Shown in pieces: positions 7,867 to 20,000 of a DNA stretch of 20,000 nucleotides. The position numbers and the translations under genes are program-made. Source of the DNA: an uncultured virus (IMG/VR IMGVR_UViG_3300042549_010585) (taxonomy: Duplodnaviria; Heunggongvirae; Uroviricota; Caudoviricetes); IMG/VR virus record IMGVR_UViG_3300042549_010585. One strand, given 5' to 3'. Under the pieces are notes generated by a model that saw only the letters and a list, made by a program, of their open reading frames with translations, had not been told where the DNA came from and searched no databases. Position 1 is the first letter of the stretch; each line of letters opens with the position of its first letter.

Positions 7867-8409
7867 TTAATTTTTAGGAGCTAATATCATGATCATAGAT
7901 TTACCATCAAGAACAGGATGTTTTTCAACTGTTGAAATATCGGAAACTGATGCGACCAATCTATTTAAAATATTTTCAGCATATTCAGGATAGGTGATTT
8001 CTCTGCCTTTGAATTTAATTAAAACTTTAACTTTATCGCCGTGCTTTAAAAACTTAATTGCACTATTAAGCTTTACATTGAAATCGTGATCTTCAATCAT
8101 AATGCCAAGCGTAAGAGTTTTCATGTCAACCTGCTTTGCTGCTGCCTGGTGTTCTCTTAGCTTTTTAGATAGTTGATATTTATATTTACCATAATCTAAA
8201 ATTTTACAAACTGGTGGTGTGGCATGTGGTGCGATTTCAATCAAATCCAAATTCATGCTCTTGGCCATCTCCAAGGCCTTGACAGCCGCTACTATACCCT
8301 GCTGTTCGCCATCTTCACCCACTAACCTAACTTCTCTAGCTCTAGGCAAATCATTAAAAAATTTAAGGATTTGATCATTGACTCTTGGCAACAAATTATT
8401 TTCTGACAT
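7867..8409 (-). CDS. infC: Translation initiation factor IF-3 (orphan, probably phage-encoded; 180 aa)
   Basis: Hallmark IF-3 motifs: RVNDQI..RAREVRLVGEDGEQQGIV, ALEMAKSMNLDLIEIAPHATPPVCKILDYGKYKY, IEDHDFNVKL...FLKHGDKVKVLIKFKGRE, PVLDGKSMIMILAP. ATG start with SD AAGGA (8420-8416) 6 nt upstream; double TAA stop. Confidence 0.97.
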   Translation of the reverse strand: MSENNLLPRVNDQILKFFNDLPRAREVRLVGEDGEQQGIVAAVKALEMAKSMNLDLIEIAPHATPPVCKILDYGKYKYQLSKKLREHQAAAKQVDMKTLTLGIMIEDHDFNVKLNSAIKFLKHGDKVKVLIKFKGREITYPEYAENILNRLVASVSDISTVEKHPVLDGKSMIMILAPKN

Positions 8410-13120: not shown

Positions 13121-16100
13121 TCAGCTATTCAACATGTCTATATACATGTCTTCAATCATCCTTCTGTAAATTATTCTCATCTTCTGCTCATGGTCTAATT
13201 GCATCTGTTTAAATTCATACTTAAGTTCTCGTTCAATTCGTTGCCTTAATAAGAATTCGTCTATTTCCTGGCCACCAGCAACAGTTTGATTATTCTGAAT
13301 CATTTGAATAATTCTCGTTGCATCAATGATAATTTCTTCTTTATCTTTTCCGCTATCAACCAACGATCTTACAACTTGTGAAATAGGATCGTTTGGAGAT
13401 TGCGTTGTTGAGGCTTGAGGATTGGTTGTAAGAACATCAATTAACTGTCTTTGGATCTGCTCTTCTGATCTTCTTAAGGCAGCTTTATTTTGCTCTCTTT
13501 CTTCAGATAATGCTTCTTGGAATCTTTCTCTTTCTTTTACCAGTTCCCTATAGAACATAGTTTCACTATCTGCACTTAATTCCGAAGCTTGATTTTCAGC
13601 GTTTTCTTTGATAATGATATTTTCTTCAAGTGCTTTATTTAATTGCTGCTGAATATCATGCTCTGCCTTTCTCAAAGCAATTTTATTCTGTTCCTGTTCT
13701 GAAATTGTTAAGTTCTGGAATCTATCTCTTTCCCCTACCAGCCCTCTGTATATATTTGACTCTTCGTCGCTAGGCAAAGACTCGATAGGTGGATCATTTG
13801 ATGTTTGTAAAAATTTTGGTTCTAGACTTGAGCCAACTGGCAAATACCTTAGATTTCTTCTTTTTCTTCTACGCTTTCTTAGATCTTCTTGATAATCTTC
13901 ATCTAGCGCTTCTCTTACACCCGTAATTCTTGGGTATCTATTGATAACATTATCTTCATCACCAAATTGATAATCGTCTGGTTGTAAGCCGTCTTCATTT
14001 AAATCTTCAAATTTTGAGTTTTGTAATTGTTCTTGTTGATCTGGTATTGTATATTCTGGAATAGAAACTGTTTTTTCATTATTACCAAAGACTTTATTTA
14101 AAGTTAAAGACACTTTTTGCTTTAAATTATTTGATTCTTCAAATTGTCTTTGAGCTTGTTCTTGGCTTCTATTAACTGGTCTATCTTGTTTGTTTCTAGT
14201 GAATAACTTAGCAAATCCTCTGGGCTCTGATTTATCCTGTATAGGCTGGCCACCTGATAAAACATTACCCGATAAAACAGAGTTTGATACAGAATCATCT
14301 TGTTGACTTTGTGTTATTGAATCTTTTTGAACCTGAATTTCTTGTTTTACATTTATTACTCGTGATTTAGATTCTTCATCAAGTTTTTTAAATTCATCTG
14401 AATTTAAAAATTCTTCCAAAAGCTCTTCGTTAGATATAGTTCTAGAGCCTTTGTATTCATAGAAATCATTAGGCATGTCTGTGTCTAAATTAAATTTAGA
14501 TGTATCAGTTGTACCTCCAGCAGAATATGTATTACCTACTTGAACATAATCTAATTGTCCATTCTGTTGGTCTGCTTTGCCAATTATATCATTTGATAAA
14601 TATTGATTGCTATCAGAGTTAGATGTATTTTGCTGCCCCATTGATGAACTTAAAACTCTAGACGTAGCAATTCCTTGAGTTATAAAATCATCACTTGCTG
14701 GTACATCTTCATTGTATATACCATCTGTACCTCTGTTTGATACATTTGAATTAATTGCATTGTCTGCTGAACTACCATCGTCCGACCCAACTGTTCTAGT
14801 TTGATAAACTCTAACACCATTATCTGATGGAATCTGCTCACCGGATGGCTGTACGGGCAAAACTGTTTGTGCTGCTGTTTGTACTGCTGTTTGTACTGCT
14901 GTTTTATTATCGACCTGAGTCGTATTTGAACCATCTGGACCTACAGACTGATAAATAGCGCCTGTTTGAGATTGATTTTTAACTTGATTATTTTCAATTA
15001 ATTCTGATGGACTAGATCCCAAATTATTATTTAAATTAGTTTCTGAAACTTGCTGGTATTCATCAGCCTGATTTTTATTTAAACTTTGAGAATCTACTCC
15101 AGAATTAAATATAGTCGAATCTGTAAGTTTTTGATTTTCAGAAAAAACTCCACCATCGGATTCTGCAAAACTATTATTTTTGCTTTCGCCTGACAAGTTT
15201 GATTCTTGAAGTTTGCCAGGCGAGCTTGATTGTTGATCAAAATTTTCAAATGCTGCATTGCCACTTGATAAATTCCCTGGTTGATCTAATCTGCTAACCG
15301 AGATTGCTTCTGGCAATTTTTGATATTCTGCACTTTGACCTGATGCATTACCAAATTGAATATTTTCATTTTCAATAATACCCGAAGATTCACTATCTCG
15401 GAGTGGAGTATTAGTGCTAAATGTTTCCACAGATCCATTCAAAGGTCTATTTTGTGTTATTGGCAATCCATTTTGATCTAACTCAAATGATTGACTTATA
15501 ATAACTCCATCTGGAGTATAACCAAGTGGAGCATTTTGGCTTATAGGCCGACCATCTTGTGATAACCCAAATGGCGTAGAATTGGGAAGTTCTGCATTTC
15601 TGCTTGTAGATTCTTGGCTGTTTGATAAAGAATTATTAAAGCTTGTGCCTTGGTCGTTTACTGAATTATTATTTATAAAATTTTGGTTAGAACTAAAGCC
15701 CTCGTTTGTATCTGGCAAGGGTTTGTTTCCAGAAACATTTGAAAATTCTTGATCTGATCCAGCCAGTGTTCTAAACCTGGTAACTTCGGGGCCTGTATCT
15801 TGATCTTGATTAAAATTTCTACTTTCAAGTGCTGGTGTATTATCAAACACCACTGACTTTTGGCCATTTATTTGATCTACTGTGAGGAATGATCTCTGGT
15901 TTTCTAGAGGTTTATTTTCACTCTTTGGCAAATCTGCAGACACACTCGTGTCTGCTTTTCCTAAATTAGCTTTATTGTCCTCTGTGACTAATTTAACTTG
16001 GTCTGGTAAAGCTGCATTACCAGTTGTTTCAATTGGCTCTGTATTAGATTGAGGAAGTTTCTGGAATGTAGAATCTGATTCTATGTTATCTGAAGCTATT

Positions 16101-16366
16101 GATAAAGCGGAAGGCTTAACAACTGCCTTGAAGGGAGTGAGTGTAGTTCCACCGCTTGTTAATTCTACACTATATGTGCCTTTCTTAAGCTTTACTAAAC
16201 CTAAAGGCAATGACCCATCAGAACTTACGTTCCCAGAAAATGTTTCAACTAATGTTCCATCTCTGTAAAATTTAGCCGAGAATGAATCACCTAGCTGAGT
16301 TAAATCTTCTCCAGTAAGTACTACGCTTGAGCCTTCTGTAAACTCAACATCTGGAGAACGCTGCAA
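13121..16366 (-). CDS. Low-complexity S/N/Q/D/E-rich protein with an N-terminal Ig-like domain and C-terminal coiled coils; probably the -1-frame continuation of the 217-aa ORF
   Basis: 1081 codons from a TTG with no usable SD. The frame stays open upstream to a TAA at 16492-16490 and overlaps the end of the 217-aa ORF. The true start is uncertain (see frameshift finding). Confidence 0.85.
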   Translation of the reverse strand: MQRSPDVEFTEGSSVVLTGEDLTQLGDSFSAKFYRDGTLVETFSGNVSSDGSLPLGLVKLKKGTYSVELTSGGTTLTPFKAVVKPSALSIASDNIESDSTFQKLPQSNTEPIETTGNAALPDQVKLVTEDNKANLGKADTSVSADLPKSENKPLENQRSFLTVDQINGQKSVVFDNTPALESRNFNQDQDTGPEVTRFRTLAGSDQEFSNVSGNKPLPDTNEGFSSNQNFINNNSVNDQGTSFNNSLSNSQESTSRNAELPNSTPFGLSQDGRPISQNAPLGYTPDGVIISQSFELDQNGLPITQNRPLNGSVETFSTNTPLRDSESSGIIENENIQFGNASGQSAEYQKLPEAISVSRLDQPGNLSSGNAAFENFDQQSSSPGKLQESNLSGESKNNSFAESDGGVFSENQKLTDSTIFNSGVDSQSLNKNQADEYQQVSETNLNNNLGSSPSELIENNQVKNQSQTGAIYQSVGPDGSNTTQVDNKTAVQTAVQTAAQTVLPVQPSGEQIPSDNGVRVYQTRTVGSDDGSSADNAINSNVSNRGTDGIYNEDVPASDDFITQGIATSRVLSSSMGQQNTSNSDSNQYLSNDIIGKADQQNGQLDYVQVGNTYSAGGTTDTSKFNLDTDMPNDFYEYKGSRTISNEELLEEFLNSDEFKKLDEESKSRVINVKQEIQVQKDSITQSQQDDSVSNSVLSGNVLSGGQPIQDKSEPRGFAKLFTRNKQDRPVNRSQEQAQRQFEESNNLKQKVSLTLNKVFGNNEKTVSIPEYTIPDQQEQLQNSKFEDLNEDGLQPDDYQFGDEDNVINRYPRITGVREALDEDYQEDLRKRRRKRRNLRYLPVGSSLEPKFLQTSNDPPIESLPSDEESNIYRGLVGERDRFQNLTISEQEQNKIALRKAEHDIQQQLNKALEENIIIKENAENQASELSADSETMFYRELVKERERFQEALSEEREQNKAALRRSEEQIQRQLIDVLTTNPQASTTQSPNDPISQVVRSLVDSGKDKEEIIIDATRIIQMIQNNQTVAGGQEIDEFLLRQRIERELKYEFKQMQLDHEQKMRIIYRRMIEDMYIDMLNS
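13442..13750 (-). repeat. Internal duplication of a 37-aa coiled-coil segment (66-aa spacing)
   Basis: YRGLVGERDRFQNLTISEQEQNKIALRKAEHDIQQQL (~13750-13640) versus YRELVKERERFQEALSEEREQNKAALRRSEEQIQRQL (~13552-13442). Confidence 0.85.
14863..14904. repeat. 12-bp tandem repeat, ~3.5 copies, encoding TAVQ-TAVQ-TAAQ-T
   Basis: The + strand reads ctgtttgtgctg ctgtttgtactg ctgtttgtactg ctgttt. Confidence 0.9.
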
Positions 16367-16368
16367 TT

Positions 16369-16420
16369 TCTGAACAATTTGCTCTTTTTCAGAATTGTTC
16401 AGATTGTAATCTTTTTTTTT
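16369..16420 (-). promoter_or_regulatory. Candidate programmed -1 frameshift signal: A9G slippery run plus 3' stem-loop
   Basis: The minus strand reads GTA AAA AAA AAG ATTACAA TCTGAACAATT CTGAAAAAGAGCA AATTGTTCAGA. Heptamer A_AAA_AAG at 16417-16411, 7-nt spacer, perfect 11-bp stem (16403-16393 with 16379-16369), 13-nt loop. Confidence 0.7.
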
Positions 16421-17052
16421 ACCCCATTTTGGGTTTTTCGCATTGAATCTGGTATATAAAGCCTCGGAGCTTCTTTGATACGATCGTAATTATAATTACT
16501 ATTATTATTTTTTGGAGCTTTTGCAGCAAGCTTTTTACTAAGAGCAATTTCTTGTGGAATTTCTTTGCCTTGTTTTTGCAACAAGCTCATAATTCCAGGG
16601 TTTGCAGGAACAAAATCTTGCATGATTTCAGATTCGTAATCATGATATAAGGTTTCACTAGAACTTGCTTTATTTGCATAAACTTCTGTAAATGTTGATA
16701 ACTTATCTTGCGGCTTAGGGTAAACAATACCAGAATCCTGTTGCTCCTCCTCATCTTTGAAAAGAGGAAATTCAGGTCGTTCTTTGCTAGTTAGTACAGG
16801 TATATTGTCTTTTGTAGTTGGTACATATCTTCTAGTGATACGCATTGGCGTTCTTGCCAATGGAGTATCTGGTAATTCTAAACTTTGATCATCAACAGTA
16901 TACATATTTACCGGTAGAGGCCTAGCATGCATAGCCGACCCTGTAGCCACTGGTTCGTAAGCATCAGTGAGGCCAGCCTCTAAATGCGAAGCATCTACAT
17001 ATTCGGATTCATCTGGTCTGATAATTGATGATAAAGATATCTTTTTTGCCAT
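16399..17052 (-). CDS. Hypothetical P/E/S-rich protein (217 aa); zero-frame product of the putative frameshifted gene
   Basis: ATG at 17052 with no clear SD. It ends ...NGVKKKITI-TGA, three codons after the slippery site. Confidence 0.85.
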   Translation of the reverse strand: MAKKISLSSIIRPDESEYVDASHLEAGLTDAYEPVATGSAMHARPLPVNMYTVDDQSLELPDTPLARTPMRITRRYVPTTKDNIPVLTSKERPEFPLFKDEEEQQDSGIVYPKPQDKLSTFTEVYANKASSSETLYHDYESEIMQDFVPANPGIMSLLQKQGKEIPQEIALSKKLAAKAPKNNNSNYNYDRIKEAPRLYIPDSMRKTQNGVKKKITI

Positions 17053-17067
17053 TTAATTCACGTTAAA

Positions 17068-17104
17068 ATAATTTGAACCACTATTAGGTAGTGGTTCAAA
17101 TTAT
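17068..17104. terminator. Perfect 16-bp inverted repeat (terminator-, operator- or processing-site-like hairpin)
   Basis: ataatttgaaccacta (17068-17083), ttagg, tagtggttcaaattat (17089-17104). On the minus strand the 3' arm ends ...AAATTATTTT. It is intergenic, 10 nt after the stop of the 710-aa gene. The repeat is certain; the terminator function is inferred. Confidence 0.6.
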
Positions 17105-17129
17105 ACAGTTAAATCTAATTCTTTTTGAA
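17100..17129 (-). promoter_or_regulatory. Candidate sigma70-type promoter for the 217-aa/frameshift gene
   Basis: TTCAAA (17129-17124), 18-nt spacer, TATAAT (17105-17100). The -10 box is perfect and the -35 box matches 4/6. The AT-rich background lowers significance. Confidence 0.4.
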
Positions 17130-19280: not shown

Positions 19281-20000
19281 CTAACCACCCATACCCTTGA
19301 AAAGGGCTCTAAAGAATCTACTTCTACCACCAGGTAACATATATTCTGGGGTGACAATAGTCTTTGAGGTTGGGTATCTTGCGAGTGGGATTTTTTCTAA
19401 AAATTTATCAAAATCTTCTTTGTACATTCTTGCATCTTCTTTAAACTGATTAAAGATGTCATTGTTTTCTGGATCAGCCATAAGAAGCTTAAATTCTCTA
19501 TTTTTAAGCTGTACGGTTAAACTTCTTAACAAATAATATGTCGCACCAGTTATAAGTGCTGCATCATAATAAAATGGTGCCTGTGTTACTGATGTGTACT
19601 TTGATGTACCAGGCTGCGCATTGATTGCTTGCAAGGCCATATATAAAGCGTTGTTTAATTCACTATGAGTGAACATCTTAACCCAATAAGATGCATATAT
19701 TGTATCATAAGGCTCTATAGTAGCTCCTGTACCCGTAGCATCTTTAAAAAATAATCTGCCATTGTAATCTGCGGAGCACAAAAGACCTTGAGGGTAATTG
19801 TTCGTTGTTCCATTTACCGTTTTGTAAATTGGAGTAACATCATCTAAATGAACATAAGGATCTATATTGCCATCTGAAGAGAATCCAGAAATTCTAATCT
19901 CTGGTCTTGGATATGCGTTCCAATATTTATGAACAAATCTACAAGATGACCTATTAAAATGTTCGAATATGCCTTCTTCGCTTTCAACATGAACTTCCAT
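19281..20000 (-). CDS. Putative head-to-tail adaptor/neck protein (>=239 aa; may start beyond the window)
   Basis: The C-terminal helical block FTHSELNNALYMALQAINAQPGTSKYTSVTQAPFYYDAALITGATYYLLRSL resembles the HK97 gp6 / SPP1 gp15 adaptor pattern. It is preceded by a beta-insert (DYNGRLFF...DTIYASY). ATG coincides with the last three bases of the window, so the start cannot be verified. Confidence 0.55.
   Translation of the reverse strand: MEVHVESEEGIFEHFNRSSCRFVHKYWNAYPRPEIRISGFSSDGNIDPYVHLDDVTPIYKTVNGTTNNYPQGLLCSADYNGRLFFKDATGTGATIEPYDTIYASYWVKMFTHSELNNALYMALQAINAQPGTSKYTSVTQAPFYYDAALITGATYYLLRSLTVQLKNREFKLLMADPENNDIFNQFKEDARMYKEDFDKFLEKIPLARYPTSKTIVTPEYMLPGGRSRFFRALFKGMGG

Follow-up and report, generated by a model that had tools for sequence, protein, structure and literature searches.

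A conserved A9 run as a predicted programmed −1 frame switch in an unannotated protein family of uncultured freshwater tailed phages

Introduction

How is an open frame of 1,096 codons translated when it has no start codon of its own? The question is raised by a locus in IMGVR_UViG_3300042549_010585, the IMG/VR record of an uncultured Caudoviricetes virus, from which a stretch of 20,000 nucleotides (nt) was analysed. This whole stretch is called the window here; all coordinates are those of the window, and its genes lie on the minus strand. An open reading frame of 217 amino acids (aa), ORF1, ends there three codons past a run of nine adenines (A9), and a second, much longer frame, ORF2, is open across the same run in the −1 frame. 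A first-pass annotation, made from the letters of the window, had proposed that a −1 shift at A_AAA_AAG, helped by a downstream hairpin, would yield both a 217-aa and a 1,310-aa protein. It had also named RNA polymerase slippage as a second route and a homopolymer error as the main alternative.

Comparison of the locus with its relatives leads us to a rough probability of 0.87 for a programmed net −1 frame switch, by which one gene would give two predicted isoforms of 217 and 1,310 aa. The recoding site is of a known kind, here in a phage protein family that is unannotated. Annotation pipelines break such a gene in two, a 'hypothetical protein' of 217 aa and an ORF2 whose start is arbitrary and wrong, and as a result the predicted 1,310-aa product is missing from protein databases.

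Architecture of the frame-switch site

ORF1 occupies 16399–17052 (−) and ends GGG GTA AAA AAA AAG ATT ACA ATC TGA, its zero-frame product of 217 aa closing with KKKITI; the TGA comes three codons after G_GTA_AAA_AAA_AAG. The A run, at 16412–16420 (−), is exactly nine bases long and is the sole A9 or T9 of the window. Its occurrence lies within chance, at one such run against 3.57 expected from dinucleotide shuffles, and what exceeds chance is the conservation and position of the run rather than its presence. The heptamer A_AAA_AAG, of the type X_XXY_YYZ, stands in the ORF1 (zero) frame at 16411–16417 (−). Across the same site the −1 frame reads GGT AAA AAA AAA GAT TAC AAT CTG and stays open to 13121. 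Counted from the GAT at 16411, this ORF2 frame holds 1,096 sense codons (13121–16411 (−), GAT to stop) and would encode the extension of the long product. The 217-aa ORF, the run and the −1 ORF all lie where the first-pass annotation had placed them. By translation, a transcript with ten A's (A10) gives 1,310 aa (214 + 1,096), and transcripts with A8 or A11 give variants of 220/221 aa with another short tail.

Predicted RNA structures flank the run on both sides. Seven nucleotides past the heptamer, beyond the spacer ATTACAA (16404–16410 (−)), lies a stem-loop at 16369–16403 (−) with a perfect 11-bp stem, TCTGAACAATT/AATTGTTCAGA, and a 13-nt loop; the TGA of ORF1 (16399–16401) is located in its 5′ arm. 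The stem, to which the first-pass annotation had drawn attention, is part of the predicted minimum-energy fold, and the 106-nt stretch containing the stem-loop folds with z = −2.72 (2 of 200 shuffles equal it). On the other side, a small G+C hairpin of four base pairs, ACCC-AAAAUG-GGGU (16421–16434 (−)), directly adjoins the 5′ end of the run. It is found in both the minimum-energy and the centroid fold and is a candidate stimulator or modulator of slippage. A pseudoknot and a second downstream hairpin were also weighed, and that hairpin was dropped because several of its pairs are broken in relatives.

Conservation of the junction in relatives

A scan of metagenome contigs recovered eight loci, of which four (L001, L003, L004 and L007) hold the junction and the other four are cut off. 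The ORF2 of these four relatives is 94%, 56%, 56% and 50% identical, respectively, to that of the window. Each of them has an ORF of 217–220 aa with a long −1 ORF after it, the A9 run is the same, and GGGGTAAAAAAAAAGATTACAATCTGA is identical to the letter. The codon phase xxA AAA AAA AAG, the phase of the heptamer and the 7-nt spacer are kept in all five DNA sequences, that is, the window and its four relatives.

The conservation is far greater than that of the coding sequence around it. A block of 42 nt around the run is nearly unchanged in the four relatives, with 71% of nearby third codon positions variable. Away from the site, 68 of 96 third positions vary across the five sequences; the 14-codon block at the run has a single variable one (binomial P ~1e-6), as do the eight codons before the run, one of which is an ATG and cannot vary (P ~1e-3). 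The codons of the stem arms behave in the same way, with 1 of 8 third positions variable against the background of 0.71 (P ~1e-3), or 1 of 6 when the codons overlapping ORF1 are set aside (P ~0.01). The stem loop and the five codons past the 3′ arm vary freely across the five sequences. In a consensus fold of the window and the four relatives, a stem core of 8 bp is kept in 5/5; one A>G substitution keeps a G.U pair, two sequences lose pair 2 and one loses the top pair. The 5′ hairpin retains 4/4 pairs in 5/5 sequences, its single change falling within the loop.

The site also reaches beyond these close relatives. A 201-nt contig from DNA run X3, which belongs to a more distant relative, has in common with the window only 16399–16437 (39 nt) and diverges on both sides; the shared 39 nt comprise the 5′ hairpin, the run, the spacer and the stop. 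Judged by these alignments, the predicted frame-switch site is deeply conserved.

A coding frame without a start

The sole nearby start codon in the −1 frame of the window is a TTG at 16364–16366 (−), which the first-pass annotation had singled out as such and which is called as the start of ORF2. The same codon is TTA, CTA, TTA and TTA in L001, L003, L004 and L007, and therefore is an ordinary internal Leu codon. From its upstream stop up to codon +71, the −1 frame of L001, L003 and L007 is free of ATG, GTG and TTG, and in L004 the first of these is found at codon +35. Homologues that are always two genes with a conserved independent start, which the first-pass annotation had considered as a contrary outcome, are not what these loci present: there is no conserved start in the four relatives.

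Yet the frame is coding. Over the first 75 codons past the run, differences at the first, second and third codon positions number 3/5/33 between the window and L004, 5/5/29 between the window and L003, and 12/5/32 between the window and L007. By this measure purifying selection acts on the 5′ part of ORF2, which has no start. The start of the ORF2 frame is its best-conserved part, at 68–91% identity to relatives, and a hypothetical start at +71 would lose four of the seven strands of an immunoglobulin-like (Ig-like) domain predicted there with AlphaFold2. ORF2 has 18 homologues in the protein collection, ten of which were inspected. The annotated starts of all ten lie at differing positions within the 71 codons past the run, the database entries starting at differing internal Leu codons, and an ORF1-like N-terminus is present in 0/10 of these inspected homologues (of 18 matches).

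The ORF1 family and its single-ORF relatives

ORF1 has 41 homologues of 119–225 aa, of which 39 were aligned with the window sequence, the fragments P0054 and P0059 being excluded. KKK is invariant in 40/40 aligned sequences, at identities down to 50%, while the ten residues preceding it vary. The residue before KKK is V in 30, L in 6, A in 3 and I in 1, each of which has codons ending in A, and the stop falls exactly three codons past KKK in 37/40. A KKK three codons before the stop can serve as a marker for recognising the family in metagenomes.

A search of 1.84 billion representatives with an ORF1-family profile, made with no length filter, returned 18 matches. Six of these are short distant relatives, and five of the six end in [AILV]KK[KN] followed by 1–7 residues. 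Seven others are single ORFs of 380–1,072 aa that begin with the ORF1-like part, and KKK occurs in 0/7. The last 140 residues of P0061, a single ORF of 621 aa, match the extreme C-terminus of ORF2 in hhalign (probability 96.9%, E 1.5e-10). Because P0061 carries both an ORF1-like and an ORF2-like end in one ORF, the counterpart of the window's two ORFs is elsewhere a single polypeptide. The matches of P0071 (hhalign probability 54%) and P0066 (26%) to ORF2 were too weak and were not counted, so that P0061 alone is used. A search for longer, fused close relatives gave one match, P0076 (461 aa), which is not an ORF1–ORF2 fusion: it consists of an unrelated multi-pass membrane-protein N-terminus and the last half of ORF1, ends KKKITI, and is probably a chimeric 1.7-kb contig.

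A side observation concerns the C-termini. In the distant short relatives P0062 and P0068 the zero-frame tail past the lysines is ILNS or NLNP, which resembles the C-terminal [IL][IL]N[SP] of the long forms (P0071–P0075 and P0061; MLNS in the window, 13124–13135 (−)). A C-terminal signal may be common to the short and long isoforms; the short tail of the window, ITI, does not fit this.

Run length in other DNA and RNA data

The stretch of the window occurs in lake and freshwater metagenome runs and one marine run, from many studies. Run lengths in these data were read from assembled contigs, not raw reads. In DNA run X3 a 2,926-nt contig (depth 8.8) spans the site, and in DNA run X8 a 707-nt contig does so; both have A9, with no gap. 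In the metatranscriptome X20, a 166-nt contig at depth 2 has A10, one extra base, with the run 12 nt from the contig end. In the RNA run X19 the contigs on either side end at 16224 and 16504, leaving the site uncovered, and nothing is drawn from it.

Ribosomal and transcriptional routes to a long product

Under standard decoding, the stop three codons past A9 would end a 217-aa protein. A net −1 change at the run would instead join the first 214 residues to the 1,096 codons of ORF2 in a 1,310-aa protein. This would comprise, in order, an N-terminal module that is conserved, an Ig-like domain, a long linker that is variable and rich in S, N and Q, and a helical module, again conserved, at the C-terminus. 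The two products via a −1 switch that the first-pass annotation had put forward are borne out by the A9 and frame break in 4/4 relatives, by KKK in 40/40 ORF1 sequences, by an ORF2 that is start-less and selected, and by P0061. The change of frame could come about in two ways. By the first, RNA polymerase would slip on A9 and add one A in some transcripts, which would then be read straight through; the length of the run matches that of the RNA–DNA hybrid, and the small hairpin adjoins the run on its 5′ side. By the second, a ribosome on the unedited A9 mRNA would slip back one base on A_AAA_AAG when it meets the stem-loop. By either, the switch would set the ratio of plain subunits to subunits with a long, probably surface-exposed, extension.

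Both routes are to be expected from the published work on polymerase slippage, as far as the passages cited here go, taken together with the features of the cassette. According to such passages of PMC5009743, bacterial RNA polymerase slips efficiently in vivo on nine A's or T's, the dnaX gene of T. thermophilus exploits a 9-nt run, and slippage in a Roseiflexus IS630 element is made possible by a nascent hairpin immediately 5′ of the motif. In the portion of PMC6260861 drawn on here, the requirements for slippage are described as strongly polymerase-dependent, T7 RNA polymerase slipping on far shorter runs than that of E. coli, whose minimum is 7 T's and a greater number of A's. The ribosomal route with a hairpin, as the first-pass annotation had it, retains a conserved heptamer, conserved spacing and conserved stem arms; it is not separable from polymerase slippage, which that annotation had also named, and probably both act. 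Within the reading of a programmed net −1 switch, that both routes contribute substantially is our tentative preference, held at less than even odds.

Several points weigh against a programmed switch. Both products, and likewise any ratio between them, are predicted from sequence alone. The binomial tests take codons as independent, and one of the eight upstream codons is an ATG. The run has been read as DNA in one sub-clade, and elsewhere in the family its presence follows from the proteins. The alignment of homologues that the first-pass annotation had suggested bears out the conserved frame break and heptamer but not a covariation of the stem: compensatory double changes number zero in five sequences (~4 lineages), in which the 8-bp core is kept. 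In the 201-nt contig of the more distant relative, the 30 nt shown past the stop differ and contain nothing that obviously corresponds to the stem, and the 5′ hairpin has four pairs only. The A10 of the X20 contig could reflect slippage of reverse transcriptase or in sequencing, or a strain with A10 in its DNA. Lastly, the virion role considered below draws by analogy on a neighbour look-up and generic fold matches.

Still within a programmed net −1 switch, the ribosome may act alone, polymerase slippage being negligible. We regard this as rather unlikely. All five DNA sequences have the heptamer in the correct phase, a phase that also fits the KK[KN] of the distant relatives, and the stem-loop lies 7 nt downstream with its arms conserved and its loop variable, all as a ribosomal signal would have it. 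However, the heptamer needs six A's and nine are kept, the X20 RNA contig shows A10, and the stem is not evident in the contig of the more distant relative. Some slippage would moreover be hard to avoid, given that nine A's or T's make bacterial RNA polymerase slip efficiently (as described in part of PMC5009743).

That the polymerase acts alone, through A10 transcripts, with the stem-loop incidental or serving another purpose, is unlikely. The conserved run length of nine, the conserved hairpin adjoining it on the 5′ side, the A10 of the X20 contig and the 39-nt block shared without the stem by the more distant relative would all agree with this. In contrast, synonymous change is suppressed in both arms of the stem, the loop and flank being variable, and the run keeps its codon phase, for which polymerase slippage has no need.

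A more elaborate version of the programmed switch, which we consider decidedly unlikely, is a two-level recoding device that replaced an ancestral single ORF, in which a terminator-like hairpin and A9 would serve the polymerase and the heptamer and stem-loop would serve the remaining transcripts. If this were true, the RNA polymerase that transcribes the late genes, whichever it is, could tune the switch.

Two separate genes, with ORF2 starting at a non-canonical codon such as the CTG in CTGA by termination–reinitiation coupling, are very improbable. Genes are commonly coupled through a start that overlaps the preceding stop, AAT CTG A is unchanged in 5/5 sequences, and gene callers treat the ORFs as separate; CTG, though, is a rare start codon. 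Two genes would also leave unexplained the KKK in 40/40 sequences, the A-ending codon before it and the near-total synonymous freeze over the 20 nt upstream of the run, and P0061 carries both parts in a single ORF.

The chance is remote that the run reflects phase variation in DNA or a recent inactivating frameshift, by which only genomes with A10 would make the long protein. Homopolymer tracts are classical contingency loci, and the A10 contig of X20 could be contaminating variant DNA. However, A9 is found in 5/5 assembled loci and 2/2 DNA runs, no fused close relative is found among the protein matches, the break is old enough to be common to ORF1 relatives down to 50% identity, and ORF2 is still under purifying selection.

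A homopolymer error hiding a true A10 and a single ORF, such as arises on platforms on which homopolymers are error-prone, is excluded by the same A9 and frame break in four independent metagenome assemblies and the contigs of two further DNA runs, X3 and X8, and by 39 ORF1 proteins that were predicted independently and share the place of their stop.

Comparison with known recoding systems

The E. coli dnaX site has a Shine-Dalgarno-like stimulator 10 nt before it, an upstream element without clear counterpart here. The dnaX shift leads to the shorter product and the one predicted here to the longer, dnaX has six A's and this locus nine, and there is no sequence relation between the proteins. 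What they share, to the extent described in parts of PMC5009743 and PMC4344849, is the heptamer, a stem-loop a few nt downstream and products with a common N-terminal part. T. thermophilus dnaX, as portrayed in a portion of PMC5009743, is alike in its run of exactly nine and in mixed transcripts that give a long and a short product. There, however, the long form is written in the template as one ORF and the short one arises by slippage, whereas here the template encodes the short form; and the heterogeneity of RNA is documented there, whereas here it is hinted at by one contig of depth 2.

Insertion sequences offer a likeness for each route. In the ribosomal OrfA/OrfAB arrangement of the IS3 family and the transcriptional case of Roseiflexus IS630, an upstream ORF is fused to a start-less −1 ORF and the shift leads to the long product; in IS630 a hairpin directly 5′ of the slip motif makes realignment of the polymerase possible (both as told in excerpts of PMC5009743). 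The IS630 stem, by the same partial account, is a 6-bp G+C stem before U5C5, unlike the 4-bp stem before A9 here. Both elements encode transposases, whereas the phage protein has no transposase similarity.

The tail-chaperone pair gpG/gpGT of lambda measures ~140/280 aa, smaller than the 217/1,310 aa here, and its slip motif, G_GGA_AAG, is different. Neither ORF resembles a known chaperone, as the first-pass annotation had remarked, with no match to chaperone families in Pfam or PHROGs, and the neighbours of 710 and 1,554 aa match no family, so that no tail tube or tape-measure gene was recognisable among them. What is alike, by the available text of PMC5009743 and PMC10885494, is a tailed-phage gene pair joined by a −1 shift that is conserved, lies close to where the first ORF ends and gives a short and a long form. 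The evidence does not support a gpG/GT chaperone role.

C-terminal extensions added by frameshift, often Ig-like, are found in T7/T3 gene 10A/10B, SPP1 gp17.1* and Listeria phages, and such frameshift-added, often Ig-like extensions on phage virion proteins were reportedly described by Fraser et al. 2006. The extension here likewise begins with a predicted Ig-like sandwich. However, it runs to ~1,100 aa, with a variable linker and helical end in addition, against ~50–100 aa there, and the carriers there are structural proteins, whereas a virion location here is argued by analogy. On that analogy we infer a place for the protein in the virion of a tailed phage, made with and without a long exposed extension. 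The tssM gene of Citrobacter rodentium, in the portion of PMC4256274 considered, is also a large structural gene broken at an A run from which both lengths are made, there by transcriptional frameshifting. It differs in being a bacterial secretion gene with a lineage-specific break; here the break is conserved across a phage family.

The locus provides a clean, deeply conserved case outside the tail-chaperone paradigm in which ribosomal and transcriptional signatures are combined, and a site suited to measuring how much each route contributes. The distant single-ORF relatives are natural controls, and make the family a system for asking why a phage trades one ORF for a switch.

Domains and identity of the long product

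The first 104 residues of the extension were modelled with AlphaFold2 from a five-row alignment (mean pLDDT 63.8, pTM 0.60), giving a predicted Ig-like beta-sandwich of seven strands at 16115–16351 (−). In Foldseek searches the model matches generic Ig-like sandwiches in the PDB (TM 0.4–0.6 over the PDB and BFVD searches) and, in BFVD, accessory domains of phage tail, baseplate and fibre proteins. With moderate confidence, the model points to an Ig-like domain encoded directly after the shift site.

The middle of ORF2 (14447–16096 (−)) is hypervariable and rich in S, N, Q, T, G and P, which together make up 0.545 of its residues; identity to relatives is 19–60%, and its length differs between them. 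In the ORF2 homologue P0012 (1,364 aa) the variable middle holds ~40 tandem heptapeptide repeats of the PGQTQPL type, and in that of P0002 a 30-residue segment is duplicated. On these two examples, the length of the linker is evidently free to change.

The C-terminal region (13124–13786 (−)) is charged, helix-prone and conserved, at 65–91% identity to relatives, and ends MLNS; it is here that P0061 aligns by hhalign. This module contains two copies of a ~45-residue motif, …RDRFQ…EQEQNKIALRKAEHDIQQQL… and …RERFQ…EREQNKAALRRSEEQIQRQL…, the second of which is the part common to the single-ORF relatives.

Database searches gave little further indication of identity. Neither Pfam nor PHROGs gave a match to ORF1 at E ≤ 0.01. 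A match of ORF2 to the Pfam family FANCL_d1 (E 0.0091, 16.4 bits against a cut-off of 23.8) is sub-threshold and was taken as noise, and apart from it the sole match of nine window proteins to Pfam and PHROGs is IF3. Sequence searches of the PDB with seven queries gave nothing below E 0.19, and those with the ORF1 and ORF2 family profiles nothing below E 0.7. Relatives were found neither in GenBank phages (blastn of 4.2 kb; tblastn of ORF1 and of the ORF2 C-terminus), nor in IMG/VR (single proteins, two alignments and the slip-block pattern), nor in GTDB genomes (scans with two alignments). General literature searches returned nothing on this protein family, and are too general to show that the family is undescribed. 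The gene is a member of a family, as yet unannotated, from uncultured freshwater tailed phages, and members of the family lie on contigs of up to 446 kb; the element is rich in A+T (G+C 34.6%).

Neighbouring genes and minor features of the window

The gene is flanked by genes for a 710-aa protein upstream and a 1,554-aa protein downstream. These, and neighbouring proteins of 1,015 and 1,215 aa, have no Pfam, PHROG or PDB match, the Atlas look-up gave no usable match for the 710-aa protein, and family matches among the five upstream proteins of L001 are limited to a zinc ribbon. No Rfam family at gathering thresholds and no tRNA was found in the window.

Two genes upstream lies the gene for a 356-aa protein. 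Its nearest clusters in the embedding-based Atlas look-up are viral, Uroviricota being commonest, and leads to head-tail adaptor or head-completion proteins are weak, with scores <0.9; AlphaFold2 gave no usable model (pLDDT 31.9). The complete gene is present in L001 (2034–3104), L003 (70–1140) and L007 (2070–3140), and the window holds the last 239 residues only (19281–20000 (−)). The protein is 95% identical between loci against 50–56% for ORF2, and evolutionary rates therefore differ greatly within the gene block.

At 7867–8409 (−), between giant unannotated genes, there is a complete gene for a bacterial-type translation initiation factor IF-3 (IF3_N E 6e-28, IF3_C E 8e-30, phrog_9787 E 1e-44). 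In locus L008 a 179-aa ORF is found at the corresponding position, after a 1,546-aa gene.

Between the stop of the 710-aa gene and the start of ORF1, a 12-bp inverted repeat, TTTGAACCACTA / TAGTGGTTCAAA, with a 5-nt loop is followed by TTATTTT (17072–17100 (−)). It was spotted by eye, is not among the results of the terminator scan, and looks like an intrinsic terminator or a 5′-leader hairpin. A promoter-like site at 17100–17129 (−), TTCAAA-18-TATAAT (10/12), overlaps the repeat with its end.

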